This document shows positions 10,622-48,650 of a stretch of 64,000 nucleotides of DNA, piece by piece. Source of the DNA: Alphaproteobacteria bacterium (GTDB lineage Bacteria > Pseudomonadota > Alphaproteobacteria > Rs-D84). A program made the position numbers and the translations under genes. Under the pieces are notes generated by a model. The model was not told the origin of the DNA and did no database searches. It was given only the letters and a program-made list of their open reading frames with translations. Each line of letters starts with the position of its first letter. Position 1 is the stretch's first letter. The stretch is from the NCBI GenBank assembly GCA_015062545.1, contig SUUL01000002.1:114995-178994 (forward strand). Reading direction: 5' to 3'.

Positions 10622-11134
10622 TTAGTATTTATTCGTTCGTATTGTCCAACCATTTTTTGCCGTTTTCCAGTTTTTTGTCCCCTTTAAGTAATCTATTCTT
10701 TCGGTTTTTAGCACAACCATAAATTCGTTGACTTTGCTATCAGGAATCGTATTTATGGATTTAATTGTTTCGCTGCCTATGGCACCATCAACAACCAAGT
10801 TCGCATCCAAAAAAGAATTTAGTGCACGTTGAACTGTCTTTCCGGCACCTCCCATCACATTCATATCAAAAACTGCATCACGTATTCTGTCGTTTGTGAT
10901 TTCTGGGATTCGTGTATTGTCCCAATATTCGTTTTTATAAATTTCTTTGGCCTGTGCGGCTGTTAAATATTTTACATCTGCTGGGAAATTTTTGTCTGGG
11001 TACTTGGCAGAATATCTGTCCAGTGTACTTTGTTTAATTCCCATATTTGTTGGTTCGTCCTTAATCTGATTCTTGCCATCTGTATATCCCCCTTCGGGTT
11101 CTTTTAACTTGTTGTATGCACTTTCAAATTTCAT
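10622..11134 (-). CDS. GH108-family lysozyme with C-terminal PG_binding_3 domain
   Basis: 'EPEGGYTDG...MGI' (EGGY motif), 'FDMNVMGGAGKTVQRALN', 'LVVDGAIGSETIKSIN' peptidoglycan-binding motif. Confidence 0.6.
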   Translation of the reverse strand: MKFESAYNKLKEPEGGYTDGKNQIKDEPTNMGIKQSTLDRYSAKYPDKNFPADVKYLTAAQAKEIYKNEYWDNTRIPEITNDRIRDAVFDMNVMGGAGKTVQRALNSFLDANLVVDGAIGSETIKSINTIPDSKVNEFMVVLKTERIDYLKGTKNWKTAKNGWTIRTNKY

Positions 11135-11289
11135 ATAGTTTTCCTTTTGTTCAAAAAAATCCCGCGCGTGGCGGGAAAATAAAAATTATCAATGTTTGAT
11201 GTTAAATCGATACAGCCCGCCAAACCTGGAACCCATCCGCCATGAATTGAAAAATCATCATATTGGTTTCTTTTGATGGTTTTATCCAT
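11121..11289 (-). pseudogene. orphan C-terminal fragment of YkuD/Tlde1-like toxin (copy A)
   Basis: encodes 'MDKTIKRNQYDDFSIHGGWVPGLAGCIDL...' starting in-frame right after the stop of the upstream membrane-protein gene; homologous to residues ~95-135 of 12176..12628. Confidence 0.6.
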
Positions 11290-11307
11290 ATGCACAAGAT
11301 AAGTGTC

Positions 11308-11661
11308 TTATCTTTGTATTAAATAAGAGAGTAAATTTAGCACAATTTCCATAACAACTGGTATAGAAAGCAAAATACAAGATTGAATATATTTATGCCT
11401 TGCTCCCTTATATATTCCAACAAACAAACACGATAACTGTATAAGCAAATATATTAACAACAAGACAACATAATAAATTGTGCGTATTTCCACCCCCATA
11501 AATTCAATAAACTTACAGCATTCTCCGTACAGCATATATGGATATGGAGCCATAGTAAAAACATATCGTAATTCGGAAATTGGAACCAGTATTGCTATAA
11601 AAGATAAACATAATAGCAATACCCATCCCAAAATACATAAAATTGATTTAACTAATTTCAT
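11308..11661 (-). CDS. small multi-TM membrane protein (candidate immunity protein)
   Basis: 117-aa, three to four hydrophobic helices; lies between toxin fragment copies. Confidence 0.5.
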   Translation of the reverse strand: MKLVKSILCILGWVLLLCLSFIAILVPISELRYVFTMAPYPYMLYGECCKFIEFMGVEIRTIYYVVLLLIYLLIQLSCLFVGIYKGARHKYIQSCILLSIPVVMEIVLNLLSYLIQR

Positions 11662-11671
11662 CAATGGTATT

Positions 11672-11812
11672 TTACATTGATAATTAAATCATGTCCATTC
11701 TTTTCAAACCATTGTGTAAAATCATCGATATGATTTGTTAAATTAAAACCCATCCGCCATGAATAATAAAATCATCACGACCGTATGTGTTGGTTTCTTT
11801 TGCCAGACTAAA
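11672..11812 (-). pseudogene. orphan C-terminal fragment of YkuD/Tlde1-like toxin (copy B, frameshifted)
   Basis: 'LAKETNTYGRDDFIIHGGW' then a frameshift; the second frame reads 'LTNHIDDFTQWFEKNGHDLIINVKY*' matching the C-terminus of 12176..12628; the catalytic Cys segment is deleted. Confidence 0.65.
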
Positions 11813-12161
11813 ATTTTGCATAATGATATAACAAGGCACCAAGCAAAGAATCTATACAAGATATTATAATTGGACTTAACGCGAGCCAGAAAGATACTTT
11901 ATAGTTTTTCTTATACAAAAAATACACCGATACTGGAATAAAAAACAACAGCGTAGCACAAGAAGATACCAGATTTGTTAAATATATGTCTGCACTACGC
12001 CATGCCCATCCCATGGACTCTCCACCCCATGGACAACGTGCAAATGGAAACGCATCACGACATTCTTTGATAAAAAATTCATAATAATCAGTAAACAGTC
12101 CATATAAAAGCAATACATTTATACCAAGACAAATTATCGTGCCACGTTTCCATTTTTGCAT
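11808..12161 (-). CDS. small multi-TM membrane protein (candidate immunity protein)
   Basis: 117-aa hydrophobic protein 14 nt downstream of the toxin gene. Confidence 0.5.
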   Translation of the reverse strand: MQKWKRGTIICLGINVLLLYGLFTDYYEFFIKECRDAFPFARCPWGGESMGWAWRSADIYLTNLVSSCATLLFFIPVSVYFLYKKNYKVSFWLALSPIIISCIDSLLGALLYHYAKF

Positions 12162-12175
12162 ACATAACCCTTTTG

Positions 12176-12628
12176 CTAGTATTTTACATGTACAATCAGG
12201 TCTTTTCCAGTACTTTCTAGCCAGGATGTAAAAGCATTTATTTGCCCTGTCATATCAATACAGCCCGCTGACCCCAGATTCCATCCGCCATGAATTGAAA
12301 AATCATCACGACCGTATGTATTGGTTTCTTTTGATGGTTCCAACCATACACGAGAGCTGCCCCAAGAATATTCAGAACCCGGCCATTCGCCTACACCCGC
12401 CAGCCCGATAATTGCATTTGTTACAGAAAGGTGTTGCAACTCACTTTGTCTTGCAACGTATGTGCCTTCGGGGATTGGTCCTGTATCTTTTAGGTTTTGA
12501 TATTCAGGACTTCTGTATCCATCTTTGCCCGACACAGCATCCCACGACATAATTGGTTTGTCGTTTTCATACAGTGTAAATTTCTTGCCGTCAAACAATA
12601 CCTGGAACAACTTATGTCGATGATTCAA
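12176..12628 (-). CDS. putative L,D-transpeptidase-fold toxin (YkuD/Tlde1-DUF2778-like)
   Basis: C-terminal 'DDFSIHGGWNLGSAGCIDM' with a His..Ser/Gly-Cys arrangement like YkuD/Tlde1 active sites; two orphan C-terminal copies lie downstream. Confidence 0.45.
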   Translation of the reverse strand: MNHRHKLFQVLFDGKKFTLYENDKPIMSWDAVSGKDGYRSPEYQNLKDTGPIPEGTYVARQSELQHLSVTNAIIGLAGVGEWPGSEYSWGSSRVWLEPSKETNTYGRDDFSIHGGWNLGSAGCIDMTGQINAFTSWLESTGKDLIVHVKY

Positions 12629-12634
12629 TAATCA

Positions 12635-12970
12635 CTAATCACGCTGAAAATAAAACTTACATCCATCCAAATAAACATATATAGAATTTGGATTGGGTGC
12701 ATAAAATTTTTCTGTTGTGCCTGTGTCTTTTTTAACCAAAATTTCTTGGGCTTTTTCGTCATTATCATAACCGCCGATGGCGATGTTTGAACTATTGATT
12801 TCAAATGAAGTATTTTCATAAAAATTCTGGGCAACATATTCACAATCTGCAGTTATGTATCCAGCATATTCAAATCGTCCAAAAGACCATTTGCCGCAGA
12901 ACTCACAAGATTTACTGTCTGTAGAGCTACAACCAATCAAAAATACACAAACCAAAACTATCTTTTTCAT
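12635..12970 (-). CDS. lipoprotein
   Basis: 'MKKIVLVCVFLIGCSS' signal peptide with lipobox L-I-G-C. Confidence 0.6.
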   Translation of the reverse strand: MKKIVLVCVFLIGCSSTDSKSCEFCGKWSFGRFEYAGYITADCEYVAQNFYENTSFEINSSNIAIGGYDNDEKAQEILVKKDTGTTEKFYAPNPNSIYVYLDGCKFYFQRD

Positions 12971-13002
12971 GCAACACAGTATAAATGATACGATTGTAAA
13001 AA

Positions 13003-14139
13003 TCAATATATACCGCGTTTATACAAGTTCCATTCATTTTGTCTGCGGTTAATTAAACCGTTTGATACTTTTCCCTGGGTGCGATTCCATGCCCGCCATG
13101 CGGATTCTAAATCCGAATAAACAGAACTATGAAAATCCGGGTTGTTTATATATTTTACAACTGTTGAATTCTTAAACCCACCCGAACCGATGTTATATGC
13201 CAAAGACACCAATGCGTCATATTGGTTTTGCGCCAACGGAACCGTGATATTATCATTTACTGCACGTTCTGCCACGGCGATATCAGAACGTAATAATGCA
13301 ATCGCCTGCCGTTCTGTGATTCCGTTTGTAAAATCTTCACCCGGCTTTACCAAATGCCCATAGCCAATTGTTGCGCCTTTTGGTAAAGGCTCGTTTGGAT
13401 TTACTGGTTTTTTCGTAGCGTCATCATATATAACATGATTGCCCCGCTTGTCTAACACTCTGTCTTCTTTACCTTTTAACCATTCAATACCTTTATCACT
13501 CATTTTCATATCGGATACCTTATTTGATTTTTGTTCTGTTTTATATGGCTTTGTGCTGATTGTTTTGCCGTTTTTATCCAGTGTTTCTTCGGTAATATGG
13601 CATGCGCAGTTTTCATGAACTGGGCATACGGGTATGTCGTCTGGAAAAAAATAAACCGTGCCATCACGAGATTCGCATTCATCGCAAGTATTTTCGCCGC
13701 CACTGCTGTGCCACCGCCATATCTTGGGGGCAATTTTAAATTCAGGTATGTCCAATTCATATGTATCCAATTGCCGTTTTGATATGTAACCACCTGGCAT
13801 TAAAACTTTGACCGGTATCGGGTCGCCAGAGACAACATAATCTTCAATATTAAAATCAAAGCCAATGTTTTCAAAGTAGTCCTCAAAGTCTTCCATAACT
13901 TCTTCGGTGGCATCATCTTTTTCTGCTTCAAAATCTGCGTCTATTTCGGCCTGTGCCGCATTAAATTGTTTTAATGTCATATCGTATTCTGGGCGCATCA
14001 TACGACCAGATGCATCAAATTGCACCGTGCCAGGATATAGTATGTTCATATACTTTGTTGCCCGTCTATATGTTTCGCTGTTTTTATCGCCGTATTCGGG
14101 CGATGATAATAATTCCTGTAAAAATTTTGGTGTTTGCAT
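13003..14139 (-). CDS. phage MuF-like (head-morphogenesis C-terminal motif) protein fused to GH24 lysozyme
   Basis: 'CDECESRDGTVYF...PVCPVHENCACHI' resembles the MuF/SPP1 gp7 C-x-x-C...P-H-P-N-C-R-C motif; C-terminal 'GATIGYGHLV...ITERQAIALLRSDIAVAERAVN...PLAQNQYDALVSLAYNIGSGGF...NRRQNEWNLY' is a T4-lysozyme-like GH24 domain; GGAG RBS before ATG 14139. Confidence 0.6.
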   Translation of the reverse strand: MQTPKFLQELLSSPEYGDKNSETYRRATKYMNILYPGTVQFDASGRMMRPEYDMTLKQFNAAQAEIDADFEAEKDDATEEVMEDFEDYFENIGFDFNIEDYVVSGDPIPVKVLMPGGYISKRQLDTYELDIPEFKIAPKIWRWHSSGGENTCDECESRDGTVYFFPDDIPVCPVHENCACHITEETLDKNGKTISTKPYKTEQKSNKVSDMKMSDKGIEWLKGKEDRVLDKRGNHVIYDDATKKPVNPNEPLPKGATIGYGHLVKPGEDFTNGITERQAIALLRSDIAVAERAVNDNITVPLAQNQYDALVSLAYNIGSGGFKNSTVVKYINNPDFHSSVYSDLESAWRAWNRTQGKVSNGLINRRQNEWNLYKRGIY

Positions 14140-14247
14140 TTTATTCTCCATAAAAAACACCCGCGTGTGCGGGTAATAAAAAAGACGACAAAATGTCGTC
14201 TGTCTGATGCCGCGTATTATACCATAAAACGTACTAAAAATCAATAA

Positions 14248-14296
14248 AAAACACCCCGTTGGGGTGCTTTTTTATAATGGGGCGGATAACCGGACT
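14248..14296. repeat. direct repeat of tRNA-His 3' end (19 nt) plus its downstream terminator (30 nt)
   Basis: 48/49 identity to 28871..28919. Confidence 0.85.
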
Positions 14297-14460
14297 GTAA
14301 ATCCCCATCTGCGCCACGTTGGCGCGATGGGCCCCATTCACTACGTAAGGTTCAAACGGCGCATACGCTTGTTTTCACCAACTGGCGTTCCGAACCCTTT
14401 TGGGGTTCTCGTCCGCGCCCCATACAAAAATTAAACGACCGGCAAGCGGTCGTTGATTTT

Positions 14461-14481
14461 TTGGTGGGGACACAGGGACTC
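14461..14481. repeat. 21-nt copy of tRNA-Lys 3' end
   Basis: identical to 20152..20172. Confidence 0.7.
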
Positions 14482-14650
14482 CCTCGCACGGTGCAAAGCA
14501 CCGGCTGCGGGGCATTCCTGACAAATCGCCTGCGCTGCGCTTGGCTCTTTTACTCATTGTCGACCCTACGCCATTAGCATGGCTTTTACGGGTTCTTCGT
14601 CCCGTGTCCGCAGAAATAAAAAAACCACCCTGCGGTGGTTTTCTTATTTC

Positions 14651-14696
14651 TGGTGGGGACACAGGGACTCGAACCCTGGACCCAATGATTAAAAGT
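14651..14696. repeat. 46-nt copy of tRNA-Lys 3' end (att site of integrative element)
   Basis: 46/46 identical to 20153..20198. Confidence 0.9.
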
Positions 14697-14834
14697 TAGC
14701 TACGTATGTTTATTTTACTGTGTTTACTGTGATTATGTTTATTTTTACTTTGCATACTGGAATTAAACGGGACATATTCGGGTTTTATTTTAGATTTATG
14801 TGAATGCGTCTTATTATACAAAAAAAGGATACGC

Positions 14835-15983
14835 ATGAAAGCAAAGTTTAATTTTACAGATACTGCTATTAGTAAAATTACACCACCACATAAAAATGTA
14901 CAAAAACTTGTATTCAGCGACAACTATCAACGTGGACTTGTATTAATTGTTGGATACGGTGGCAAAAAAGCTTTTTATTTCAGGGGCAAACAACATAAAA
15001 AGAAAATTATGTTTAAAATTGGCGAATTCCCGTATATGAACACAAATAAAGCAAGGGAAAAGGTGTTTGTGCTGTACAACGACTTAAAAAGGGGAATATT
15101 GCAACAACCTGATATAAAACTGCAACACATTACACTAAAACAGCTGTTTTATGATGAATATATCCCAAAACATGCAAAAATATTTAAAAAACACAATGCA
15201 TGGCAAATAAATGAACGTACTTTTAAAACACACTTTAAAATTATTGAGAATATTGAGATAGATAAGCTGACAAGGAACAATATTGACATATGGCACAAAA
15301 GCATTGGTAAAAATAGTGGCATATACATGGCAAACAGATGTCTGGCATTGATACGCCACATGTTAAATATGGCAATAGATTGGGGGTTGTTGACTATCAA
15401 TCCTGCACAGAACATACGGCAATTTAAAGAAGTAGCACGTGATAGATTTTTGCAACCGGCAGAAATAACAAACTTTATGCAAGCATTGATGGGCACAACA
15501 AATGAAATGTTTAAGCATTTTATACTGCTGTTATTATATACAGGGCAACGAAAAGCGAACATTTTAGCGTTACGTTGGGAACATATAAATCTGCATAATT
15601 GTATATTGTACCTGCCAGACACGAAAAACAATCAATCCCAACAGATTCCACTTACTAAACAAGCAATAAATGTTTTAAAAGACATAGGCATAAAAGACTT
15701 TGGTTGGGTATTCCCCAGCAAACAAAGTACAAGCGGACATATGGAAAACCCAAAACGATACTGGGCAGAATTGCTAAAAAAAGCGAATATAACTAATTTA
15801 AGAATGCACGATTTAAGACGTACAATGGGCAGTTATCAGGCAATAGTTGGCAGCAGTATGAATATTATTAGCAAGTCGCTGGGGCACAAATCAATACAAT
15901 CAACAGCAGTGTATGCAAGACTTTCATTAGAACCTGTAAGGGAATCAATGCAAAAAGCAACAGACGAGATAATGAAATATTAA
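14835..15983 (+). CDS. int: tyrosine recombinase/integrase (P4-like)
   Basis: C-terminal 'LRMHDLRRTMGS...LGHKSIQSTAVYARL' R-H-R-Y catalytic motifs. Confidence 0.85.
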   Translation: MKAKFNFTDTAISKITPPHKNVQKLVFSDNYQRGLVLIVGYGGKKAFYFRGKQHKKKIMFKIGEFPYMNTNKAREKVFVLYNDLKRGILQQPDIKLQHITLKQLFYDEYIPKHAKIFKKHNAWQINERTFKTHFKIIENIEIDKLTRNNIDIWHKSIGKNSGIYMANRCLALIRHMLNMAIDWGLLTINPAQNIRQFKEVARDRFLQPAEITNFMQALMGTTNEMFKHFILLLLYTGQRKANILALRWEHINLHNCILYLPDTKNNQSQQIPLTKQAINVLKDIGIKDFGWVFPSKQSTSGHMENPKRYWAELLKKANITNLRMHDLRRTMGSYQAIVGSSMNIISKSLGHKSIQSTAVYARLSLEPVRESMQKATDEIMKY

Positions 15984-16057
15984 AAAAATTTTTGCAGTTG
16001 GTTAACTTCTGACTATGCTATCGTTTATTATTTTATTCATGTAAAAAAGGATGAAAC

Positions 16058-16774
16058 ATGAATAAAATAAAAATACATTTGGGATACGAGGCACAAACAT
16101 TTGAACACAGGGACTTTAAATCTTTTGACATAGATTTAACCACATTTCCAGCATTGTTTATTGATTATAATAATAATTATTTTGGGGTAACAGCTGACCC
16201 AATCACATTATCAATTATTAGTCAAATAAAAGACCTAGATAAAAAAAATAGAACACTACACACTGTTATTATAGACAAAGGTAGAATAACGCATAATTCA
16301 GCTATGCCAGAAGGAACGTACAAAAAAAATGACCCCGGAATAATGATAAAAAGATTAACTGCAATTGTAGCAAAACGTTATGAAAAAAGTTTGCAAGACG
16401 AAAGCTACCTTACTCACCATAAGTACGTAGTGATAGTAAAAGGAATTAATGGACTGGAAGCATTATTGACTAAAATGATGTCTATGCTTGGTGCAGTTGG
16501 GGTCTACTTAATAATGGCTGACAACAGCAGTGAATTAGAAGGATATAGCTATTTAAAAGAGTATTTATACGGCCAAATAACTTATGCAAGCCAATGGGAT
16601 ACACCTGCAGGGGTTGGTATATGTCCTTCAGAATACGGCCCTAGTTATGGGATAGTTACAGAAAGATTCAAACCCGAGTACAAATGTAGTAAAGATATAT
16701 ATTCAGATTTTAATTATAAAAAAATAATAACTCGCGAACCAACGCCTATAGAATGGTTGTTTAGTCAATTATAA
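16058..16774 (+). CDS. hypothetical protein
   Basis: 238-aa ORF with no recognised motif. Confidence 0.4.
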   Translation: MNKIKIHLGYEAQTFEHRDFKSFDIDLTTFPALFIDYNNNYFGVTADPITLSIISQIKDLDKKNRTLHTVIIDKGRITHNSAMPEGTYKKNDPGIMIKRLTAIVAKRYEKSLQDESYLTHHKYVVIVKGINGLEALLTKMMSMLGAVGVYLIMADNSSELEGYSYLKEYLYGQITYASQWDTPAGVGICPSEYGPSYGIVTERFKPEYKCSKDIYSDFNYKKIITREPTPIEWLFSQL

Positions 16775-17011
16775 CCTTGCTTTTATTGTAATTTTTATGA
16801 TAGTATTCCCTTGAATCATATAAGTGGTTCAAGGGCGTCAGAACCCTGTTAATGCATTGTATCCGTGGGGATATTAAACACCTCCGACTGTAATTGGTTG
16901 GAGGGTGGCGAAATATCAAAATAAGCCCGCTATTTTCAATGCATTATAGTTCTGAACCTCCAACCACCAGTATGATTTGGTGGTTTTTTATTAACATAAA
17001 AAGGATGAAGC

Positions 17012-17236
17012 ATGGCTTTTGTAATAATGATAGCGTGTTTGGCGGCATACTTCTTGCCAACGATTGTTGCTGTACTGAACAGCAAATGTACAAACAAGAT
17101 TGGTATTTTTATATTGAACTTGTTATTGGGTTGGACGTTTATAGCATGGGTTATTGCGTTAGTAATGGCATGTGGTAATGGCGTACGTGAAACAATAGTT
17201 ATAAACAATGATAATTCAGCTAAAACAGCAAAATAA
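17012..17236 (+). CDS. superinfection immunity protein (Imm_superinfect family)
   Basis: 74 aa, two TM helices, 'YFLPTIVAV...LNLLLGWTFIAWVIALVMA' signature. Confidence 0.6.
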   Translation: MAFVIMIACLAAYFLPTIVAVLNSKCTNKIGIFILNLLLGWTFIAWVIALVMACGNGVRETIVINNDNSAKTAK

Positions 17237-17293
17237 TACTGGGTTGGGTGCAAAAATGCCCAACCTTATTATTTTACAACAAAGGACACACAG

Positions 17294-18523
17294 ATGAAAG
17301 TACAAGCATTATTAGCGGTGTTATTACTGTCTGCATGCGGTGGTTTAACACAAGAGAAATTTTATGAAGATACTAACAATGCACAAAAAGCAACCGAATT
17401 AAGTGGTAAGGCAATACGAACATCAGATTGTGATAAAATTGGGCAATTATATGAGTTTTCGGTTATGGACAACCCAACCGCAAGTGATTTAGAAGCAATA
17501 TTGCCATTGTTGGGCGTACAAAAGAAAGATTTTAAAAATATAGATAAGCTATATACATTAGATTTAAGTGCAGTAGATAAATTAAAATGCGAAGACAACA
17601 GAGATAAACTTGGTAGTGAAGCACGCCGGTATTGCAAAGATAAGTATTATGACGAATATGGTATTGAGACTGCAATGTACTTTCCATTCAGATTGGTTTC
17701 GACAGTATCTGTATTTACTATAGTCGGTGCAATTCCTTTTATGGCACATAGTTGTGGCATGGAATCAGTATGGCATCCAATTGCATGTAATAGAATGCTA
17801 GATTGTAGAAAACACTTAATGCAAACGGTAAATACAGGCACAGAAGATTATTCTGGTGTACGTAAAAGCAAGATAAAAGAGCAGATACAGGCAAAAATAA
17901 GGCAAATATACGCAATTCCTAATGTATGTAAAAATTATCATACATATACAAATGATTATGGTAAAACGATAAAAGAATATGACGAAAAATTTCATTATGC
18001 GTTTTCAGAATTTAAGCCAAGTGAAATGATAGCAGCAGCAAATAAAACGATTGGTACATATGATGACGACTGCATGAATGGCACAATATGTGATAATAAC
18101 GACACAAAAATAGTAACTGGGGCTAATGTAGCAAAAGTGTTATATAATCATTGCAGTAATGATATTGATATGTGGCTTAGAACAGATGACTATATAAGCT
18201 TTAATTGTTCTTGTTTTGCACGCAATGCTTACAAAGACGTTTCATACAAGAATATGTTGTACATTTATGAAAACAAAGAATTCCCACAAAGCAAAGAAGC
18301 AGAACTGACAAGGCAAATGCGCAACTGTAAAAACAAATGGGACAAGCAAGTTGCACAACAGCAGATAAACAGATATGGCGAAACAACGGACGGACAGACA
18401 AATAGTGATGTAGAAGCAGCTATTAATAACGTTGTAGACGCAGTGCAGAATGCGGTTTGGATGAACGAACAATTAACTGAAAAAAGGAAAGATATAGAGA
18501 ATTTGCGAGATTTGGACATATAA
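17294..18523 (+). CDS. Cys-rich lipoprotein, hypothetical
   Basis: 'LLAVLLLSACGG' lipobox; 409 aa with many Cys. Confidence 0.5.
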   Translation: MKVQALLAVLLLSACGGLTQEKFYEDTNNAQKATELSGKAIRTSDCDKIGQLYEFSVMDNPTASDLEAILPLLGVQKKDFKNIDKLYTLDLSAVDKLKCEDNRDKLGSEARRYCKDKYYDEYGIETAMYFPFRLVSTVSVFTIVGAIPFMAHSCGMESVWHPIACNRMLDCRKHLMQTVNTGTEDYSGVRKSKIKEQIQAKIRQIYAIPNVCKNYHTYTNDYGKTIKEYDEKFHYAFSEFKPSEMIAAANKTIGTYDDDCMNGTICDNNDTKIVTGANVAKVLYNHCSNDIDMWLRTDDYISFNCSCFARNAYKDVSYKNMLYIYENKEFPQSKEAELTRQMRNCKNKWDKQVAQQQINRYGETTDGQTNSDVEAAINNVVDAVQNAVWMNEQLTEKRKDIENLRDLDI

Positions 18524-18723
18524 AATTGCATAAATAACAATAGGAACTGACACCATTAGGCAATATTGGACGCTAACTATTGTTACGAGCAAGAAATAAT
18601 ACAAAAGGCACTGACAATACATGCAGTGCTTTTTTATTATTTTTTTGACGCAGGACAGCGATAAAAAAAACTCCTTAGAAACAACAAGATAGCGTCTTAA
18701 TATATAGGTATAGGAGTAAAAAA

Positions 18724-19260
18724 ATGAATATAAATATTATATTAAAGAACAAATTAATGTTTGATTTGGCTAAATGCCCCCACACACTTGTTGTTTGCAA
18801 AAATAAAACACGAGAAACAACAGTAAAATATATTGTAGGCGAACTGTTAAAACAAAATATTACTTGTATAGAAACAGATAGCATAGCAGAAATTGAAGAA
18901 GAGCTGGAAGATAGATACAGACTGTTTATTGAAACAGAAACAAGCAGTATTGAAGAATATAACGCAAAACACGAAGATAAATTAGACTATTGGGTAATTA
19001 TTATAAAGGATATTAGCTCGTACGATGCATTAAAAGAAATACTTATGAAAGGACGTGCAGCAGGCATTCATGTAATGCTGTTTGTAAAGAACTTTAGCGG
19101 TATAAAGAAAGATAAAGAGCTGATACATATGTTTCCTGTAAGATTAATATATAGAAATTCACACAAACGCGAAACTGTTATTGTTATTAGCGAAATTGGT
19201 AAAGGGGCTAAAATATTAAAATTAGACGACGATAACAAGACAAACAGTGAAGTAATATGA
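18724..19260 (+). CDS. hypothetical protein
   Basis: 178-aa ORF. Confidence 0.4.
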   Translation: MNINIILKNKLMFDLAKCPHTLVVCKNKTRETTVKYIVGELLKQNITCIETDSIAEIEEELEDRYRLFIETETSSIEEYNAKHEDKLDYWVIIIKDISSYDALKEILMKGRAAGIHVMLFVKNFSGIKKDKELIHMFPVRLIYRNSHKRETVIVISEIGKGAKILKLDDDNKTNSEVI

Positions 19261-19301
19261 CGCACAGCTTTAACGACAGCTAGGCAATAAAAAAACGCTG
19301 T

Positions 19302-19835
19302 TTATACAGCGTTAAATAACATAGAGCTGGTATACATATTTTCAAAATCTATATGACGCTTATGTAATGGATATTCTTTAACAATATAATTAAACACATC
19401 GTAGTTAAATACAGTACGTGTAAGCAAGTGATTGTGTACAGGTGTATAATTATTGTTTTTTTGAAATGACTCGCTGTATGTATCGTAAGTAAGATATAGG
19501 TATGGACAATGTAGTAAAGTCTTTTCGATTGCTGTATTAAAGTCGCTTGTTGTTTGTTGCATAAGGTTAAATACAGAATGTACATGTAAGATATTGGTTT
19601 TGCCATGCTCTATAATAGTAATAGAAGGCAACGGATGCTTAAACCAGTTACGTCCTTGAAAATGTGTTAATATACGTGAATATATTTTTCTGGTTTTTTG
19701 CTTGGCTTCTTCTATACTTTTTTGCTGTTGATTGAAGCGCAATGTGCAAAAAACAAGATTGTCAGACAAATGCATAGATAATGCTTGCTTGATAAAGTGT
19801 ATAACAGCTGATTGATGTAATTGTTTTACATTCAT
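19302..19835 (-). CDS. hypothetical protein with HUH-like motif (possible rolling-circle Rep)
   Basis: 'NILHVHSVF' H-u-H-u-u-u plus downstream Tyr cluster 'YLYLTYDTY'; tentative. Confidence 0.3.
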   Translation of the reverse strand: MNVKQLHQSAVIHFIKQALSMHLSDNLVFCTLRFNQQQKSIEEAKQKTRKIYSRILTHFQGRNWFKHPLPSITIIEHGKTNILHVHSVFNLMQQTTSDFNTAIEKTLLHCPYLYLTYDTYSESFQKNNNYTPVHNHLLTRTVFNYDVFNYIVKEYPLHKRHIDFENMYTSSMLFNAV

Positions 19836-20152
19836 AATAAACTCCTTTGTATATAAAAATAATTTGATTTAGGGTATAGCTCTCACATAGGAAAAAGCGA
19901 AGTCTTTCCTTTGTGTCGGGCGCAAATCCCATAAATTTATGTCAGCACCCGATTTGCTAAAATAAATTTTATGGGTGATATATAATATATTTATCGCAAA
20001 AACTAAATTTTGTGAACCAAAGTGAAAAATTTTTTTCGTAAAAATTGCAGTAGTGGACGAAAAAGGGACAAAAAAGGGAAATAAAATTAGCAATAAAATT
20101 GACGCAAACAAACAAAACAAATAAAAAACCTGCTGATTTCAGCGGGTTATCT

Positions 20153-20228
20153 TGGTGGGGACACAGGGACTCGAACCCTGGACCCAATGATTAAAAGTCA
20201 TTTGCTCTACCAACTGAGCTATGTCCCC
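20153..20228 (-). tRNA. tRNA-Lys (anticodon TTT)
   Basis: manual cloverleaf: acceptor GGGGACA/TGTCCCC, anticodon loop cTTTTaa, TTCGAGT T-loop, CCA encoded; stem-loop + T-run terminator at 20128..20150. Confidence 0.85.
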
Positions 20229-42580: not shown

Positions 42581-43810
42581 TTATTCCCCCAAGGCCGTTT
42601 CAATCGCCGTCATTTGGGCAATAGGTGCAATATATTTCAATTCTGCATCACCATGTAATGTTATTGGCGCAATAACACCACGACTGGATAATATCTGTAA
42701 TCCACGGTCACATAACGGCCTGATAAATTCATGCAACAAGCGACCATACGTCGCACCCAATATACGCATCATGTCTGCGTTGCGTGCCATAATTTCTGTG
42801 GCTGTCATTTCTTTTTCAGACAATAACCCCAGTCTGTCCGCCAATAATGCATGGCGAATACGTTCACGCAAATCTTTCAACACCAGTTGCGATACATCAA
42901 AGTCCGCACCACTGGCCAATGGCGTTAAGCCTGACGAACCAACCGCCTTGGGGATAATTGCGCCGGGGGTTAAATTGATGTTATTCAGGTTTATTACACC
43001 GTCATCGTCCGCCTGCCAGATGCCGGATACGGCAATTGTTGCATTCTTTAATACCAATTCTACAACCTTGTTGGCGGTTTTTATATCCGGTAATGCACGC
43101 AAGACAGGACCGCGACCATATAATTCACCCGATGATACAGACCAACGAAAGATAATATATGGATTCGTTTCAAATGTACCTGTGGACACAATATTATTTT
43201 CAATATCACCACCAACATCCAACCAGGCTGTAAATTCTGTACCAACCAATGACTGGACCAGTTTTAATGGTGTTTCTGGATTCTGTTTAATGGTGTCGCG
43301 CAGGTTGTTGGGCGGTGTCCATGTTGGATAACGTTCCATGACTTCACATGCCGGCATTGATGTAGTGTGAAATACTGCGTTGGGTAAAATGGCAATGTCT
43401 GACATCGGAATCGCTGTAAATGTAAACGCAGATGACGCGCCAATCGGCGATTGTGCCATAAATAAGCAAGCCGTCCCCAAAACGACCAAGTCCATATAAC
43501 ATTGATGTATAACTGTGTAAAAATTAGAATCGTTCAGATTTGCACGTAATGCGTTTGTGGCATATTCTGCATCTGGTGACATGATGCTTTCTGGGACAAG
43601 TGTTAACCACATAGATTCTGGCGGGGTTAACAATGTATAAATTGATGCCGCCAAATTATCTGCCGCATCCATCGCAGTTGCATCAAACAATGTTGCCGCA
43701 TCATCATCGGCAGTTGGCATGGTATATCTGCGCGCGCTGTCCCAGCGGTTTTGCCATGGGGCGCGCATATCCAAGGCGCGTTTATATAAACTTTGCAGGT
43801 TTTGTTGCAT
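42581..43810 (-). CDS. T7-like portal (head-tail connector, gp8-like) protein
   Basis: N-terminal 'YKRALDMRAPWQNRWDSARRYTMPT...DNLAASIYTLLTPPESMWLTL' parallels T7 gp8 'YERLKNDRAPYETRAQNCAQYTIPS...NNLASKLMLALFPMQTWMRLTI' (from memory). Confidence 0.6.
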   Translation of the reverse strand: MQQNLQSLYKRALDMRAPWQNRWDSARRYTMPTADDDAATLFDATAMDAADNLAASIYTLLTPPESMWLTLVPESIMSPDAEYATNALRANLNDSNFYTVIHQCYMDLVVLGTACLFMAQSPIGASSAFTFTAIPMSDIAILPNAVFHTTSMPACEVMERYPTWTPPNNLRDTIKQNPETPLKLVQSLVGTEFTAWLDVGGDIENNIVSTGTFETNPYIIFRWSVSSGELYGRGPVLRALPDIKTANKVVELVLKNATIAVSGIWQADDDGVINLNNINLTPGAIIPKAVGSSGLTPLASGADFDVSQLVLKDLRERIRHALLADRLGLLSEKEMTATEIMARNADMMRILGATYGRLLHEFIRPLCDRGLQILSSRGVIAPITLHGDAELKYIAPIAQMTAIETALGE

Positions 43811-43839
43811 AAGGTTTCTCCTTTGGTTTTGTGTTATGT

Positions 43840-44706
43840 TTATATGTTGAAATTCGTGTTGGCTGAAAATGTCTTTATCGTGCCACCCAATGGGCGAATA
43901 AGTGTTGCAGGATGTGCAATCGCACCGGCAACGGCATCCAGGCCGTCATCATGCATGCCATGCGCCATGGGAGACCACCCCAACATTTCTGCCATCAAAG
44001 GGGTCTTTTGCACGCGAATATGTGCATGCAAATGTCCCGTTGTTAAAACTGGTTCAATCGCGTCTAAAATTCTGTCTGATTTGGCCCGAACGTTTGATAC
44101 GCGGGTTACGTAAATGCATAAGCCACGCCGCGTGGCACAATCGCGCATTATTTCCGGCAAGCCACCACCAATCCCGTTCGTTTCAATAGTTATCCGATGC
44201 AAACCACGCGCATGCATAAAATCCAGAACTTGATTGCACTGATTGGACAATGGATATTGTTCCGTATCAGACACCGTCAAATACAAAATGTCATGAATAA
44301 ATACATTGCGCGCCTTGTCATCACGATACAGTAACACACACGCACTGCCGTCACGATTGCGGCGACCACTGGATGGATCCCAATATAAAATGCTGCCGGT
44401 TATTAAATTATTACCCAGTTTTGCCGTGCGTGGTTCAAATTCGTCATCATAGAAATGCAGACTGCCGGGATCAAGGCGCGCACGTTCGGGCGAAATAAAT
44501 TCCAACATCATTTGTGCCGAAAAATGTCGCGCACCAACCGTTTCACGCATACTGTTTATCTTTTCAATCGGAAAAAGTTCCGGCCACGCGGGATTTCCCG
44601 CCGTATCAACAATGGGAATTTTTAATAATTTATACCCACTTAAAAAAGGCGTTGAAAAAGCAAAATTTTCATATACCATGGGCATAGAAGAAAAGGATTT
44701 TGACAT
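43840..44706 (-). CDS. terminase large subunit, C-terminal nuclease domain (separate ORF)
   Basis: 'DPSSGRRNRDGSACVLLY' first catalytic Asp motif and terminal 'MHDDGLDAVAGAI' motif; the open frame has no upstream ATG beyond an internal ATG at 44706 preceded by a GGGGG RBS. Confidence 0.6.
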   Translation of the reverse strand: MSKSFSSMPMVYENFAFSTPFLSGYKLLKIPIVDTAGNPAWPELFPIEKINSMRETVGARHFSAQMMLEFISPERARLDPGSLHFYDDEFEPRTAKLGNNLITGSILYWDPSSGRRNRDGSACVLLYRDDKARNVFIHDILYLTVSDTEQYPLSNQCNQVLDFMHARGLHRITIETNGIGGGLPEIMRDCATRRGLCIYVTRVSNVRAKSDRILDAIEPVLTTGHLHAHIRVQKTPLMAEMLGWSPMAHGMHDDGLDAVAGAIAHPATLIRPLGGTIKTFSANTNFNI

Positions 44707-46270
44707 GGATTTTACCCCCAAAACATTACCCACCAATCTGGAAGCAGAACAGGCCGTATTGGCCGCGGTTTTAATGAATAATCGCGCATTGGAACGTGTG
44801 TCAGAATTCTTGCGGGCAGAACACTTTTCACACCCCGCACATCAAGAAATATTCCGTCTGGCAGAACGTCAATTCGCCGCAGGCATACCGTTTGATATTA
44901 TTACCGCAAAAAACTATCTGGATCAGCAAGGCGTGTTGGAATCTGTTGGCGGGGTTGATTATCTGACACAATTATCTGGCGCAGGTGCAACCGTTGTTAA
45001 TGTAGAGCAATATGGACGTATCGTTTATGAACACGCATTACGCCGTGATTTGATTGCGTTGGGCCAAGATATTACAGACAAGGCCTTTATTGAAGATTTG
45101 GATAATCCTGTGGCGCGTCAGATTGAATTGGCCGAACAGAAACTGTTTGATATGGCAACCGCAGGTGCATCTGAACGCGAAGTAACATCCATTTCAACCG
45201 CATTGGAATCTGCATTGAAAGAAGCAGAAATCGCATACAAGGCCGATGGGCAGTTATCCGGTCTGACAACTGGATTGACCGCACTGGATAAATCAATCAG
45301 TGGCTTGCACCATTCTGACTTGATTATTATCGCGGGCCGTCCGGCGATGGGTAAGACAACATTGGCGATGAATATCGCGTTTAATGCCGCCAATGCCATT
45401 GCATACAATCGTGCAAATCAAAATTATAAAGGCGCGGTTGTGTTCTTTAGTCTTGAAATGTCGGCATCACAGTTGGCGGCGCGTGTGCTGTCTTCACAAT
45501 CCAAAATTCCTGCATCTGCAATGCGTGAAGGAACACTGACCGATGAAGATTTCTTGAAAATGTCACAATATTCTGCAGCCATTGGTAAAGTTCCGTTATT
45601 CATTGATGACACGCCAGGTATGTCCGTACCAATGATGCGTACACGCGCCAGAAGACTGGCACGCAAACATGGCGGTATTGCATTAATCGTCATTGACTAT
45701 CTGCAGTTGATGACCGCCCCAGGTGGCAAACGCAGCGATAACCGGGTACAGGAAATTTCTGAAATTACCCGTGGTCTGAAAATGCTGGCCAAGGAACTGG
45801 ACGTGCCTGTAATCGCACTGTCACAGTTGTCGCGAAGCGTGGAATCACGTGATGACAAACGACCACAGTTGGCTGACTTGCGCGAATCAGGGTCTATTGA
45901 ACAAGACGCGGACATCGTTATGTTTACGTATCGCGAAGAATATTATCTGCAAAATCGCGACCCGTCCGAAAGATTATCAAACACAACAAACAGCACAATG
46001 GTCGAATCGTGGCAAAAAAGACTGGAACGCGCACGCGGCAAAGCAGATATTATTATCGGTAAAAACCGTCACGGCCGTCCAGAAACTGTACGAACTGCAT
46101 TCTTTGGGGATTACAGCTTGTTCGATAACCTGGACGAATTCCAAACACGGGGCGAAAATGAATTTGCACAACCTGCACCAACAATTTCCGCAGCCGCATT
46201 GGGGCCAGACCCCGAATTTGAACCAACCGCCATCGATATTGATGCAATCCCAGATGATATGCCAATGTAA
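44678..46270 (+). CDS. dnaB: replicative DNA helicase DnaB
   Basis: 'LEAEQAVLAAVL' N-domain, Walker A 'AGRPAMGKTT', 'IVIDYLQLM', 'VIALSQLSR'; start is either 44678 or 44705. Confidence 0.85.
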   Translation: MGIEEKDFDMDFTPKTLPTNLEAEQAVLAAVLMNNRALERVSEFLRAEHFSHPAHQEIFRLAERQFAAGIPFDIITAKNYLDQQGVLESVGGVDYLTQLSGAGATVVNVEQYGRIVYEHALRRDLIALGQDITDKAFIEDLDNPVARQIELAEQKLFDMATAGASEREVTSISTALESALKEAEIAYKADGQLSGLTTGLTALDKSISGLHHSDLIIIAGRPAMGKTTLAMNIAFNAANAIAYNRANQNYKGAVVFFSLEMSASQLAARVLSSQSKIPASAMREGTLTDEDFLKMSQYSAAIGKVPLFIDDTPGMSVPMMRTRARRLARKHGGIALIVIDYLQLMTAPGGKRSDNRVQEISEITRGLKMLAKELDVPVIALSQLSRSVESRDDKRPQLADLRESGSIEQDADIVMFTYREEYYLQNRDPSERLSNTTNSTMVESWQKRLERARGKADIIIGKNRHGRPETVRTAFFGDYSLFDNLDEFQTRGENEFAQPAPTISAAALGPDPEFEPTAIDIDAIPDDMPM

Positions 46271-46347
46271 TTGATAATTATTTTCTTGCGCCGTGCCGAT
46301 AAATTGACTATTATTTTGTCAAGAAATAACTGTTTTAGGAGTTAGAC

Positions 46348-47355
46348 ATGGCACAAGAAGAAATTATCTTTCCAAATAATATTCGTAACATCCGTTTGGC
46401 AAATGGTATGAAAATGACAGAACTGGCGCGTCAGGCCGGGTTGTCTTTGTCCGCTGTTTCCAAAATCGAAAAAGGTGTGCGCCGATTAAACCAAAAACAG
46501 TTGTTGAATATTTGCAATATCTTGGGATGTAAATTGTCCGATATTTTCATCAAAGAATCCGATGATGTCGCAAACCAATGGCAAGATGAAATTAAACGCC
46601 GTATGACAGACAATGAAAATAATGGTCTGAAAATATTCGGCAGTGGTCTGCGCAAAATCCGCCAACAGGCCGGCAAAACAATCGCCCGTGCCGCAAAAGA
46701 TGCAGGTATGACATTGTCTGTATATCACAAGATAGAAGTCGGACAACGTGAAATATATACCAATGAAATTGAACCGTTGGCAAAATCTTTTGCATTAGGC
46801 GCAGAAGAACTGTTTGAAAAAATCGCGAATCTGTACAAGTCTGGCGAACTGAACAAACACATGAACAAGGTCAAAGAACGTGTAAAATCTGTATTGGAAC
46901 CCGGCAGTCCATTGTCTGGTATCGATATGGGTGGTGGACTGTATGGCGCAAAATTGTATGACAGTGCACGTAAAAAACTGATTCCTGTGTTTGGAACACC
47001 ATCTGGCAAAGCATTAACCTTGAAGAAATCAGATAAAACCATGATTGTCGCACCAATATCACTGGAGGGACGTAATGGTATTTACGCAGTGGTACCAAAT
47101 GCCAAACGTTTGGGTGGAATCATACCTGAAAAATCTTATGTGTTTGCAGATGCGTTGGTAACACCAAAAGTTGGTGATATGGCAATCTGTATGGATGTTG
47201 ATTTTGATACACTGGATGCAGATACCAACGTGGTCGCGCATATCGTAACAGTAAAACAAGATGCCAAGGGTAAGATTTACGGTCAAGCCATGTTCCCAGA
47301 AGAAAAAATTAATGCCAAAACAATGCACAAAATTATTATGATTGTTATGGAATAA
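46348..47355 (+). CDS. CI/LexA-like repressor: two HTH_XRE domains + S24 peptidase-like C-terminus
   Basis: two 'LS.SAVSKIEKG / ...TLSVYHKIEVG' XRE HTH units; C-terminal beta-rich domain with Ser/Lys spacing like the S24 family. Confidence 0.55.
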   Translation: MAQEEIIFPNNIRNIRLANGMKMTELARQAGLSLSAVSKIEKGVRRLNQKQLLNICNILGCKLSDIFIKESDDVANQWQDEIKRRMTDNENNGLKIFGSGLRKIRQQAGKTIARAAKDAGMTLSVYHKIEVGQREIYTNEIEPLAKSFALGAEELFEKIANLYKSGELNKHMNKVKERVKSVLEPGSPLSGIDMGGGLYGAKLYDSARKKLIPVFGTPSGKALTLKKSDKTMIVAPISLEGRNGIYAVVPNAKRLGGIIPEKSYVFADALVTPKVGDMAICMDVDFDTLDADTNVVAHIVTVKQDAKGKIYGQAMFPEEKINAKTMHKIIMIVME

Positions 47356-47385
47356 TTACCCCCCTTTGGAAAGGAGAGAGCAAAC

Positions 47386-48024
47386 ATGAAAGCAACCGCA
47401 CGCGTAACTGCACAAAGACTGTTAAATCTGTATCGGCAAGAACATGTAATTATTGGCGGATGGGCCGCCGTAAACCCAATATTTGTCCAAGATGCAACTG
47501 ATATGGTTATGCAAGAGTTGGCCGATATGCCAACAGGAAATGCATTAATCGCACATATCAATAATCTGCGCAGCGGTAAAACCCCAATGAATTCTATTGA
47601 ACGCGAATTATTACCATACGGTGGCATGATGGCAGAAGCGTTGCCATCAATCACACTGAACCAAAACCAATGGCAAGAATTGACCCAGGCAATAGAACAA
47701 TTTACCCCAAATCAGCCAGGTTTGGACAAGTTTACTGCGTTGGATGTGGTACGTCAATTCGGTGCAGAATGGCCAACCGCAATTCGTGCAATCCTGACAG
47801 AACGCCCGCATTTGTTAGAAAAGTGGGCAACCATTAACCAAACATATAACGCATATAAATTATGGAATACCGCACATGAAATTATCGCAAATCCACTGTC
47901 GGAACGTGTGCGCGCCCAAGTACAGGCAGACATGCCAGAATATGAAACTTATTTGCCGATGTTTGGTGATGCAGGTTCGGAATTATTGGTAAAACTGCGC
48001 ACTTTTATCAGCAGTCTGAATTAG
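47386..48024 (+). CDS. hypothetical protein
   Basis: 212-aa ORF; its stop overlaps the convergent terminase ATPase ORF stop. Confidence 0.4.
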   Translation: MKATARVTAQRLLNLYRQEHVIIGGWAAVNPIFVQDATDMVMQELADMPTGNALIAHINNLRSGKTPMNSIERELLPYGGMMAEALPSITLNQNQWQELTQAIEQFTPNQPGLDKFTALDVVRQFGAEWPTAIRAILTERPHLLEKWATINQTYNAYKLWNTAHEIIANPLSERVRAQVQADMPEYETYLPMFGDAGSELLVKLRTFISSLN

Positions 48025-48626
48025 TTTCCGATTGCAGTGCGGTAAATCGTATCGTACGCATGCGGTGTACCAATATATATCATCGTTCCGGTTGGCGACA
48101 ATATAAAATCTAATTCACGTAATCTTTCACGCAAATTTTCACGTTTCTGTGCGGTGTTTGCCGTGTTTGGAACCTCTACGTCATCGCATATAATCAAATC
48201 TGCACGCATACCGGTGATATTTCCGTGTACCCCTTGGCAAATTACAGACGGTTCGCGAATACCAATCGGGCGTTTAACAGTGATACGACCCGTGGCCCAC
48301 TCTTTTTTACCAACAGGTATCATATCAGTACACCATGGATGATTTTCTAAAATATGCCTGATATGACCAACCATACGTGTTGCCAGACCACTTTCCGCCG
48401 ACAAAATCAAAATTCTGGTTTCTGGGCGCAGGTACAAAACACATGCTGCAAAAACGCCAACCACCGTGGATTTGCCAGAATGACGAAACGCCATCAACAA
48501 TCCACGATGTGGCGACACAGATAATATATCAACCAAGAAATTCATTATTCGCCGATGATGTGCCGGTGTCTGATATCCCAAAACACGATTCCATTCGTCT
48601 AAAAACGCGTTAAATTCCGTATTCAT
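48021..48626 (-). CDS. terminase large subunit, N-terminal ATPase domain (separate ORF)
   Basis: Walker A 'AFRHSGKST', Walker B 'LIICDDVE', motif III 'YIGTPH'; terminates right after motif III. Confidence 0.7.
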   Translation of the reverse strand: MNTEFNAFLDEWNRVLGYQTPAHHRRIMNFLVDILSVSPHRGLLMAFRHSGKSTVVGVFAACVLYLRPETRILILSAESGLATRMVGHIRHILENHPWCTDMIPVGKKEWATGRITVKRPIGIREPSVICQGVHGNITGMRADLIICDDVEVPNTANTAQKRENLRERLRELDFILSPTGTMIYIGTPHAYDTIYRTAIGN

Positions 48627-48650
48627 TTTGGCAATATCCCAAGAAGCAGG

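Follow-up and report, generated by a model that had tools for sequence, protein, structure and literature searches.

Here, we analyzed a 64-kb stretch of contig SUUL01000002.1 from an uncultured gut Alphaproteobacteria bacterium (the window, to which all coordinates given below without a locus name refer) and found in it a small integrative element, which sits in the 3' part of a tRNA-Lys(UUU) gene and supplies this gene with a new 3' half and a terminator of its own. Near-identical copies of the element are present in at least four host backgrounds, and it thus moved between species recently. Comparison with related loci (designated L0xx) places it, on sequence grounds, in an unnamed family of 5.4-7.3-kb integrative elements in metagenome-assembled genomes (MAGs) of gut Alphaproteobacteria. 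On balance, we favor the view that it is a functional member of this undescribed family of small integrative elements, which would depend on a helper and would be nicked and replicated by an HUH endonuclease of its own.

Integration site and gene content

A repeat search identified two 46-nt direct repeats (14651-14696 and 20153-20198) that are 100% identical, and chance is excluded as the cause of a perfect 46-mer occurring twice within 9 kb. In the tRNA, the repeat runs from position 31, at the 5' edge of the anticodon loop, to position 76, at the CCA end, and represents the 3' 46 nt of tRNA-Lys(UUU), a gene called by both ARAGORN (anticodon ttt) and Rfam (RF00005, 77.5 bits). Flanking direct repeats built from the 3' part of a tRNA gene, as in tRNA-integrating islands, and a GC content of 0.331 in the 5,456 bp between them (14697-20152), versus 0.413 in the remainder of the window, bear out the first-pass annotation of this region, which had proposed a low-GC integrative element in tRNA-Lys bounded by perfect 46-bp repeats. 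P4-type tyrosine integrases that recombine inside a tRNA gene bring along a replacement 3' half, leaving the classic repeat footprint. The element-borne terminator-like hairpin is retained in L009, L024, and L026 with compensating changes; the native tRNA terminator hairpin (14611-14652) adjoins the distal repeat on its left, outside the element. The features of the element and its borders are as follows.

14462..14650, no strand: 189-nt unit consisting of a 20-nt tRNA 3' fragment and 169 nt ending in a copy of the tRNA-proximal flank
14651..14696, no strand: distal direct repeat, the original tRNA-Lys 3' end (46 nt) displaced by the insertion; an att site of the integrated element
14835..15983, plus strand: P4-type tyrosine integrase, 382 aa (PF00589, 4.9e-25; PF13356, Arm-DNA-bind_3, 3.9e-8; phrog_1, 4.6e-58)
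16058..16774, plus strand: open reading frame 2 (ORF2), 238 aa, probably a second FtsK-like pseudo-ATPase of very divergent sequence
17012..17236, plus strand: Imm_superinfect small membrane protein, 74 aa (PF14373, 3.5e-15); accessory gene
17294..18523, plus strand: family-core lipoprotein, 409 aa, 14 Cys, lipobox LLSAC at Cys15
18724..19260, plus strand: ORF5, 178 aa, FtsK/SpoIIIE-like domain (PF01580, 6.7e-4; phrog_1358, 1.9e-6), Walker A and B lost
19302..19835, minus strand: probable small HUH endonuclease (Rep-like), 177 aa (invariant motifs, sub-threshold PF23343, AlphaFold2 model)
19928..19975, minus strand: imperfect hairpin in a block of ~190 nt upstream of rep (RNAalifold); candidate nick site or origin
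20057..20083, no strand: two adjacent AAAAAGGGA(C) motifs near the att site, read from the sequence
20130..20152, minus strand: element-borne terminator-like hairpin, read from the sequence, directly after the reconstituted tRNA
20153..20228, minus strand: intact tRNA-Lys(UUU) (ARAGORN, Rfam), of which 20153-20198 is the proximal, element-supplied repeat

All six genes between the repeats were found where the first-pass annotation had placed them. The integrase combines the N-terminal Arm-DNA-bind_3 domain of P4-type enzymes with the full R-K-H-R-H-Y catalytic set (R239, K264, H325, R328, H351, and Y360, all intact), confirming its earlier assignment to this type and leaving no sign of degraded motifs. 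The two AAAAAGGGA motifs of the window are confined to the att-proximal side and may represent arm-type sites of the integrase. A related pair was also found in L012, L014, and L016. L010 has no such pair upstream of rep, and there int lies between att and rep.

No genes for virion, lysis, pore, primase, excisionase, or repressor functions were detected among the six ORFs with Pfam, PHROGs, NCBIfam, and PADLOC, and the DNA of the whole element, compared with 50,697 phage and 72,556 plasmid records, matched only at the tRNA. Scans of IMG/VR with the alignments of Rep and the lipoprotein retrieved no relatives either. The earlier notion that the element is too small for a prophage therefore stands, given the lack of virion genes in Pfam and PHROGs searches and of relatives in IMG/VR and the phage records. 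In PADLOC-DB 2.0, Imm, the lipoprotein, the integrase, ORF2, and Rep had no match; the single one, a weak match of ORF5 to SspH (E 4.7e-4), reflects the FtsK-like part of ORF5.

The 189-nt unit located between the distal repeat and the chromosome opens with a third copy (20 nt, 14462-14481) of the tRNA 3' end, which the first-pass annotation had overlooked. Such units of 173-189 nt start with the last 17-20 nt of the tRNA (T-loop onward) and end with a copy of the flank and terminator. They are absent from L023 (empty site) and L024, present once in the window and in L010 (8293-8451), and present as two identical tandem copies in L025 (6945-7290), and an analogous 173-nt unit occurs at a different tRNA in L016 (7461-7757). 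The unit is probably what an earlier integration into this tRNA gene left behind, and it looks like the product of a T-loop crossover by an older element, followed by amplification via unequal recombination.

The element family and its movement between species

The layout [repeat] int ... rep [tRNA] recurs around relatives of Rep, the lipoprotein, and the integrase. Target genes are tRNA-Lys(UUU) in the window, L010, L024-L026, and L034, tRNA-Lys(CUU) in L012 and L016, tRNA-Thr(UGU) in L014 and L015, and tRNA-Thr(GGU) or tRNA-Met in the more distant relatives L008, L002, and L006. The repeats of close relatives measure 46-53 nt at 94-100% identity; distant relatives have less strict ones (L008, 38 nt at 89%; L002, 69 nt at 84%). 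When the proteins of the window, L010, L012, L014/L015, and L016 were compared all against all with BLASTP, these elements proved to have in common the integrase (64-85% identical; the window protein is 64-66% identical to those of L010, L012, L014, and L016), Rep (49-74%), the lipoprotein (26-49%), and at least one FtsK-like protein each. Although alleles have been swapped, the closest relatives keep a size of ~5.4-5.6 kb.

Other accessory genes in the family encode uracil-DNA glycosylase (UDG), MORN-repeat lipoproteins, and a protein with an Mrr-like nuclease fold, and a radical-SAM gene set is present in L008. The latter (13140-15974, at tRNA-Thr(GGU)) comprises three extra cargo genes. Two of their products, one of 241 aa with a core of 191 aa and one of 407 aa, lack a Pfam match, and the third is a radical-SAM/DUF5131 protein of 258 aa; the set resembles an uncharacterized defense-type operon.

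The hosts are uncultured gut MAGs labeled 'Alphaproteobacteria bacterium'. Proteins of the family, including those of the window (MBE6461556-65), are all 'hypothetical' or unannotated, and no database name exists for the family. Fragments were also encountered in MAGs labeled Prevotella sp. (L001, JAMPCO010000039.1, a 3.7-kb contig with an integrase 94% identical to that of L010) and Muribaculaceae bacterium (P0023). Since all long contigs point to Alphaproteobacteria, these labels are probably binning errors.

An exact-pattern search for the predicted empty site identified L023, from a related genome. This locus represents an empty attB: the left flank (96% identity to 14583-14650) runs straight into an intact tRNA-Lys, followed by the right flank (89%). 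Comparison of the window with L024, L025, and L026 revealed 98.7-99.5% amino acid identity for the integrase and 100% for Imm, ORF5, and Rep, with a synonymous divergence (dS) of 0.01-0.05, whereas the syntenic host neighbors (a major facilitator superfamily [MFS] protein and proteins of 235 and 606 aa) are 61-67% identical, with far larger or saturated synonymous divergence. RecG of the compared hosts is 79.7% identical. Likewise, L024 and L026 differ in MFS (67% identity), yet their Rep and lipoprotein sequences are 100% identical, and L034, with an identical Imm protein, represents a fourth neighborhood. Near-identical element genes in divergent hosts exclude vertical descent and imply recent movement between species. 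Together with the empty site, they demonstrate mobility, and the class suggested in the first-pass annotation, that of an integrative mobilizable element (IME) or satellite, fits.

Modules have also been exchanged between the elements, as seen in sequence comparisons. Within otherwise near-identical elements, ORF2 is represented by a swapped allele (36% identity to L024 and L009), and the lipoprotein is 87.5% identical with a dS of 0.28. In L014 (tRNA-Thr) and L016 (tRNA-Lys-CUU), Rep is 100% and the ORF5-like protein 99.5% identical, and the integrases are 77% identical. Ratios of nonsynonymous to synonymous divergence (dN/dS) of 0.07-0.24 for int, ORF2, and the lipoprotein gene (0.23-0.24 for the latter) indicate purifying selection.

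Probable HUH protein, FtsK-like domains, and envelope proteins

Its conserved motifs and structure model make the 177-aa protein very probably an HUH endonuclease. Homologs numbered 17 among 5.8 billion clustered proteins, all metagenomic and unannotated. In an alignment of 16 homologs, F29xT31 (motif I), H84xH86 with hydrophobic residues after it (motif II; HVHSVF begins at residue 84 in the window protein), and Y150xxK153 (motif III) are invariant. PF23343 (REP_ORF2-G2P), which covers the gene II protein of filamentous phages and plectrovirus ORF2, is the sole profile matched by all 16 members, with a best E of 4.9e-5 and every score below the gathering score (22.7 bits for the window protein versus 27.8). 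The AlphaFold2 (AF2) model (pLDDT 75, pTM 0.76; one of five models confident) has the order beta-alpha-beta-beta-alpha-beta-beta-alpha, placing HUH in strand 83-90 and the motif III tyrosine in helix 144-154, so that motifs I-III follow in order on the fold expected for the HUH superfamily. Foldseek comparison with the PDB gave non-significant similarities, with the HUH domains of AAV2 Rep and MVM NS1 among the top ones (E 0.02-0.05, TM 0.3-0.41). The origin-binding domain of AAV2 Rep and the nuclease of MVM NS1 are both HUH domains. A profile search of PDB sequences with the Rep alignment gave no match at E <= 0.001, and in NCBIfam neither Rep nor ORF2 nor the lipoprotein could be placed in an informative family. 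Hence, the HUH-like nature of Rep proposed in the first-pass annotation is upheld as probable by its invariant motifs, while its family is PF23343, at sub-threshold level, and not Rep_trans or Rep_1.

Directly upstream of rep, ~190 nt are conserved in the window, L010, L012, L014, and L016. The imperfect hairpin at 19928-19975 within this block is common to all five, and six of its pairs are preserved via two-sided changes, which amount to few independent compensatory events since L014 and L016 are near-duplicates. This conservation suggests that the hairpin is likely a nick site or origin.

ORF2 and ORF5, regarded as two unknown ORFs in the first-pass annotation, turned out to encode FtsK/SpoIIIE-like domains, with a probable assignment for ORF2. 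A first homolog search with ORF5 returned two near-identical proteins, and an exhaustive phmmer search was needed to reach FtsK: against 1.8 billion representatives it gave 37 matches, 10 of which were scanned with Pfam. The seven more distant ones all carry PF01580 (FtsK_SpoIIIE) above the cut-off, several together with FtsK alpha and gamma domains, and the three closest small homologs include two without a Pfam match. In NCBIfam, ORF5 matched the FtsK-like ATPases EssC and EccC of type VII secretion systems weakly, far under the cut-off. At the position where genuine FtsK has the Walker A motif PHxLIAGxTGSGKS, ORF5 and its element-borne homologs have PHTLVVCKNKTRET, PHLLIVGKGDNNSN, or PHLLIYGLGHCRSK (CKNKTRET in ORF5, where GxxGxGKS is expected), and the Walker B position, hhhDE in genuine FtsK, is occupied by IIIKDIS (ORF5), LFASLPT, or VFVTLPT. 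Replacement of both motifs renders ATP hydrolysis impossible, and neither ORF5 nor ORF2 has the intact Walker A (GxxGxGK[ST]) and Walker B (hhhhDE) of TcpA/TraB/FtsK-type translocases. By these alignments, ORF5 is an ATPase-dead FtsK/SpoIIIE-like domain.

ORF2 had no direct match in Pfam, PHROG, NCBIfam, or PADLOC, and homologs of it were found in L014, L016, and L010. Alignment of the ORF2 family with the ORF5/FtsK alignment in hhalign (probability 63%, E 6.9e-5, 165 colinear columns) indicates that the element probably carries a further, more divergent copy of the FtsK-like domain in ORF2, an assignment of moderate strength. The FtsK-like proteins of the element are 178-238 aa long and are not predicted to be membrane proteins. 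Two FtsK-like proteins of 316-388 aa from other metagenomes, P0092 and P0111, also have a degenerate Walker A motif (GGDDYATDQ and GGDADSGIT), which raises the possibility that ATPase-dead FtsK-like domains form a wider undescribed group.

With a score of 56.1 bits, above the gathering cut-off of 27.9, over profile positions 2-42 of 42, and with a match to phrog_1039 'immunity to superinfection' (2.8e-19), the 74-aa protein is, by profile comparison, a genuine member of PF14373, the family of T4 Imm, as had been proposed. The gene beside it encodes the 409-aa lipoprotein, whose lipobox and 14 cysteines agree with its initial description as Cys-rich. Its homologs, 13 among 5.8 billion proteins, include no annotated one. 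The first-pass annotation had treated both proteins as cargo, which holds for Imm: among the five closely compared elements, Imm is confined to the window and L010 lineages (two of five), whereas the lipoprotein is present in all five and thus belongs to the core. Llp, Cor, and TraT are exclusion lipoproteins of prophages or plasmids. The element lipoprotein has no sequence or fold similarity to them and is conserved family-wide even where Imm is missing. Its AF2 model is confident (pLDDT 78) and mostly helical. A hydrophobic stretch at residues ~123-151 is conserved; it is poorly modeled and missing in two homologs, suggesting that this segment is re-entrant or peripheral and does not form a single-pass helix. 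By its family membership, Imm would have a role in exclusion at the cell envelope, possibly together with the lipoprotein; the first-pass annotation had suggested an exclusion or defense function for the pair.

The invariant core of the family, which includes Rep, an envelope lipoprotein, and one or more FtsK-like proteins and so extends beyond Rep and integrase, brings up an alternative that we consider quite improbable, namely, a self-transmissible capsid-less or membrane-enveloped agent of the pleolipovirus, plasmavirus, or 'plasmid vesicle' type. In such an agent, the lipoprotein and small membrane proteins would build or target a vesicle and the FtsK-like proteins, as DNA-binding pseudo-ATPases, would recruit the DNA made by Rep, and the rolling-circle product would leave the cell as an 'infectious vesicle', either within the outer membrane or across it. 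If true, a vesicle-type apparatus would explain identical copies across species without recognizable conjugation or virion genes. The tightly held size of the closest relatives would fit this idea, as would the hairpin-like appearance of the conserved hydrophobic segment in a lipoprotein fold without known relatives. However, both FtsK-like proteins lack ATPase motifs, the lipoprotein is frameshifted in some strains and devoid of the hydrophobic segment in two homologs, and no similarity to any viral protein was found in PHROGs or BFVD.

Proposed life cycle, related systems, and neighboring loci

In the life cycle that we favor, the integrase would excise the element to a 5.5-kb circle. The 177-aa HUH endonuclease would then nick this circle at the hairpin that is conserved upstream of rep, and host helicase and polymerase would copy it by rolling-circle synthesis. 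Since the element is devoid of genes for a conjugation pore, an active motor ATPase, and a capsid, cell-to-cell transfer would depend on a helper, either a phage packaging the rolling-circle concatemers or a conjugative system using the HUH protein as relaxase. In the integrated state, the core lipoprotein and, in this lineage, the T4-Imm-type membrane protein would act at the cell envelope, where exclusion of incoming phage or element DNA would be the likeliest role of this module. The two ATPase-dead FtsK-like proteins would most likely be adaptors or DNA-binding partners and not motors.

Several observations weigh against this view. The HUH call draws on sub-threshold profiles, non-significant Foldseek E values of 0.02-0.05, and one confident AF2 model of five, and a replication initiator and a relaxase are not separable by sequence. 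Neither an excisionase nor a regulator gene was found in the element, no helper was identified, and the lipoprotein has no family match and no Foldseek match in the PDB or BFVD at E <= 0.001. All 23 of 23 contigs with an identical MFS neighbor carry the element, which thus may be quiescent in this species. The first-pass annotation had proposed looking for the empty tRNA-Lys site and the excised circle: the former is represented by L023, whereas the attP circle junction, sought as an exact sequence, had no match in JGI metagenome contigs. Logan contigs of ~5.4-5.6 kb were rejected as excised circles, as they end ~30 nt inside the repeats owing to breaks in the k=31 assembly. Finally, the lipoprotein gene is frameshifted into two ORFs in L019 and L031.

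The frameshifted genes, from strains of the same species, lie at 13723-14952 in L019 and at 9109-10337 in L031 (ORF pairs of 282+80 aa and 142+260 aa), and the ORF5 gene call is 11 codons shorter at the 5' end, giving 167 aa, in L020, L022, and L024. Split lipoprotein genes and short ORF5 calls could reflect early decay, phase variation, or assembly errors. As signs of decay, they would fit a fixed, immobile remnant island with host-domesticated genes, and so would the occupied contigs and the missing circle junction. We nevertheless regard a remnant as highly implausible: the repeats are perfect, the catalytic residues of the integrase are intact, and the six ORFs are open and under purifying selection. 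Above all, core genes that are 98.7-100% identical in species with ~65% identical flanking genes cannot be explained by vertical descent, and these near-identical copies in divergent hosts largely refute a decaying or fixed remnant.

In how it works, the element comes closest to non-canonical IMEs and minimalist satellites among described systems, and it fails defining features of every named family tested. With mobility taken as given, conjugation is a possible, if doubtful, route, packaging in the manner of the PICMI satellites an unlikely one, and autonomy a very unlikely one; the remainder of the probability was assigned to no route.

In conjugative mobilization, which we consider only tentatively, the HUH protein would be a relaxase acting on the hairpin as origin of transfer (oriT), the FtsK-like proteins would dock to the coupling protein or type IV secretion system (T4SS) of a helper, and the lipoprotein would mediate entry exclusion. 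Exclusion lipoproteins are common on conjugative elements, and near-identical copies in hosts with 80% identical RecG fit the broad host range typical of conjugation. The combination of an integrase, an HUH protein of the rolling-circle-initiator type, and an FtsK-related protein is present in 83 of 118 non-canonical streptococcal IMEs (PMC5704250). Like the element, these Firmicutes IMEs, equipped with a rolling-circle-initiator relaxase and a TcpA (FtsK-like) coupling protein, are small, integrate site specifically by a tyrosine integrase, encode an HUH protein of the replication-initiator type (probable in the element) instead of a canonical MOB relaxase, and have an adjoining FtsK-related gene and no mating-pore genes (PMC5704250). 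An integration/excision module of its own, another IME characteristic (PMC5704250), is provided by the integrase and att repeats.

In contrast to these IMEs, the element has a Gram-negative alphaproteobacterial host, a Rep protein with weak similarity to PF23343 instead of Rep_trans, PF01719, or PF02407, short FtsK-like proteins without Walker A/B, and a lipoprotein in its core. The precedent comes from Firmicutes with TcpA coupling proteins that are active ATPases, whereas ORF5 has lost both Walker motifs and ORF2 is weakly FtsK-like. Furthermore, no MOB-family or relaxase model of Pfam or NCBIfam matched the element ORFs, and no T4SS gene was seen in the scanned parts of the window or in the gene lists of related loci.

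PICMIs of Vibrionaceae are integrative satellites of ~6 genes whose rolling-circle replication yields concatemers for packaging (PMC10803314), and in size and gene count the element matches these smallest proven satellites. It also resembles them in carrying an integrase, a replication function, and accessory anti-phage genes and in lacking capsid-remodeling genes, with rolling-circle replication inferred in the case of the element. A PICMI-like minimalist satellite would be excised upon a trigger from a helper phage, replicated as a rolling circle by the HUH protein, and packaged as concatemers into helper capsids by a headful mechanism, with Imm and the other accessory genes guarding the host against competing phages. 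The phage-related or defense-like accessory genes (Imm_superinfect, UDG, the Mrr-like nuclease fold, and the radical-SAM cargo of L008) agree with this model, as does a podovirus-type structural cluster 22 kb away in the window. Nonetheless, we judge it rather unlikely: no homolog of AlpA, primase, TerS, Sid/Psu, or capsid-remodeling proteins was found, no family member is present in IMG/VR, the phage-like cluster has no demonstrated link to the element and an interrupted terL, and identical copies across species would require a helper of wide host range.

Membership in PICMI proper, modeled in SatelliteFinder as int, AlpA, and a DUF3987/DUF5906 primase next to fis (PMC10803314), was rejected, as only int is present, searches of Pfam, PHROGs, and NCBIfam revealed neither AlpA nor a primase, the element occupies a tRNA gene, and an HUH protein takes the place of the primase. 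P4-like satellites, PICIs, and cf-PICIs were likewise rejected, with no match to sid/psu/delta, terS, ppi, capsid, alpA, or primase genes among the six ORFs.

The element shares a tyrosine integrase at a tRNA gene, a rolling-circle-type Rep, and an FtsK-like protein with the actinomycete integrative and conjugative elements (AICEs). AICEs, such as pSAM2, are 9-24 kb in size, reside in mycelial Actinobacteria, and encode an active hexameric TraB motor with intact Walker motifs. With catalytically dead FtsK-like domains, no active TraB, and a Gram-negative host, the element was not assigned to them. The ~5-kb integrative satellites of filamentous phages, RS1 and TLC of Vibrio cholerae, carry a Rep of the PF23343 type. 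The element differs from such satellites in lacking pI/Zot, coat, and pIII genes and in using its own tyrosine integrase at a tRNA gene, not XerCD at dif. An Inoviridae prophage was dismissed, as no ORF matched Zot (PF05707), the relatives of ORF5 are FtsK_SpoIIIE proteins, and no family member occurs in IMG/VR, and so was a Microviridae prophage, as there is no ORF of F/VP1 size (~430-600 aa) and no capsid match.

Small 'hitcher' islands are thought to form much of the unexplained mobile DNA of bacteria, and few families have been defined outside model organisms. The core set of the present family, with a tyrosine integrase, a minimal 177-aa protein of probable HUH type, one or two predicted ATPase-dead FtsK-like proteins, and a lipoprotein without a known fold, is unlike described IMEs and satellites. 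Its transfer between species is clear and datable in uncultured gut Alphaproteobacteria, and it may offer new insight into how a 5.5-kb element without pore, motor, and capsid genes crosses species and into the roles of pseudo-ATPases and the lipoprotein. Minimal HUH enzymes with a compact target, such as the candidate hairpin, are of the type used as reagents for single-stranded DNA-protein tagging. Should the element be an ordinary mobilizable island with exclusion cargo, the gain would be a well-delimited new family for mobile-element annotation.

The podovirus-type cluster of the window (42581-53876, minus strand) encodes a portal protein (PF12236, 3e-81), tail proteins (phrog_376 and phrog_394), and a major head protein (phrog_3437). 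Its large terminase is in two pieces, 48021-48626 (profile positions 271-462) and 43840-44736 (positions 483-703), separated by a 3.3-kb plus-strand insert with genes for a DnaB-like helicase, a helix-turn-helix regulator, and a 212-aa ORF product. The cluster could represent a defective prophage or an interruption of terL, and a function as helper of the element is conceivable.

The left flank of the element (10622-14244) holds a toxin/effector cluster and not a phage. It contains a gene whose 413-aa product combines a phage-lysozyme domain at the C terminus with a weak MuF-like part, small ORFs next to this gene, and genes for a Tlde1/YkuD L,D-transpeptidase-type effector and a GH108 lysozyme, for which the Tlde1 and GH108 annotations were taken from the same genes in L018-L032.

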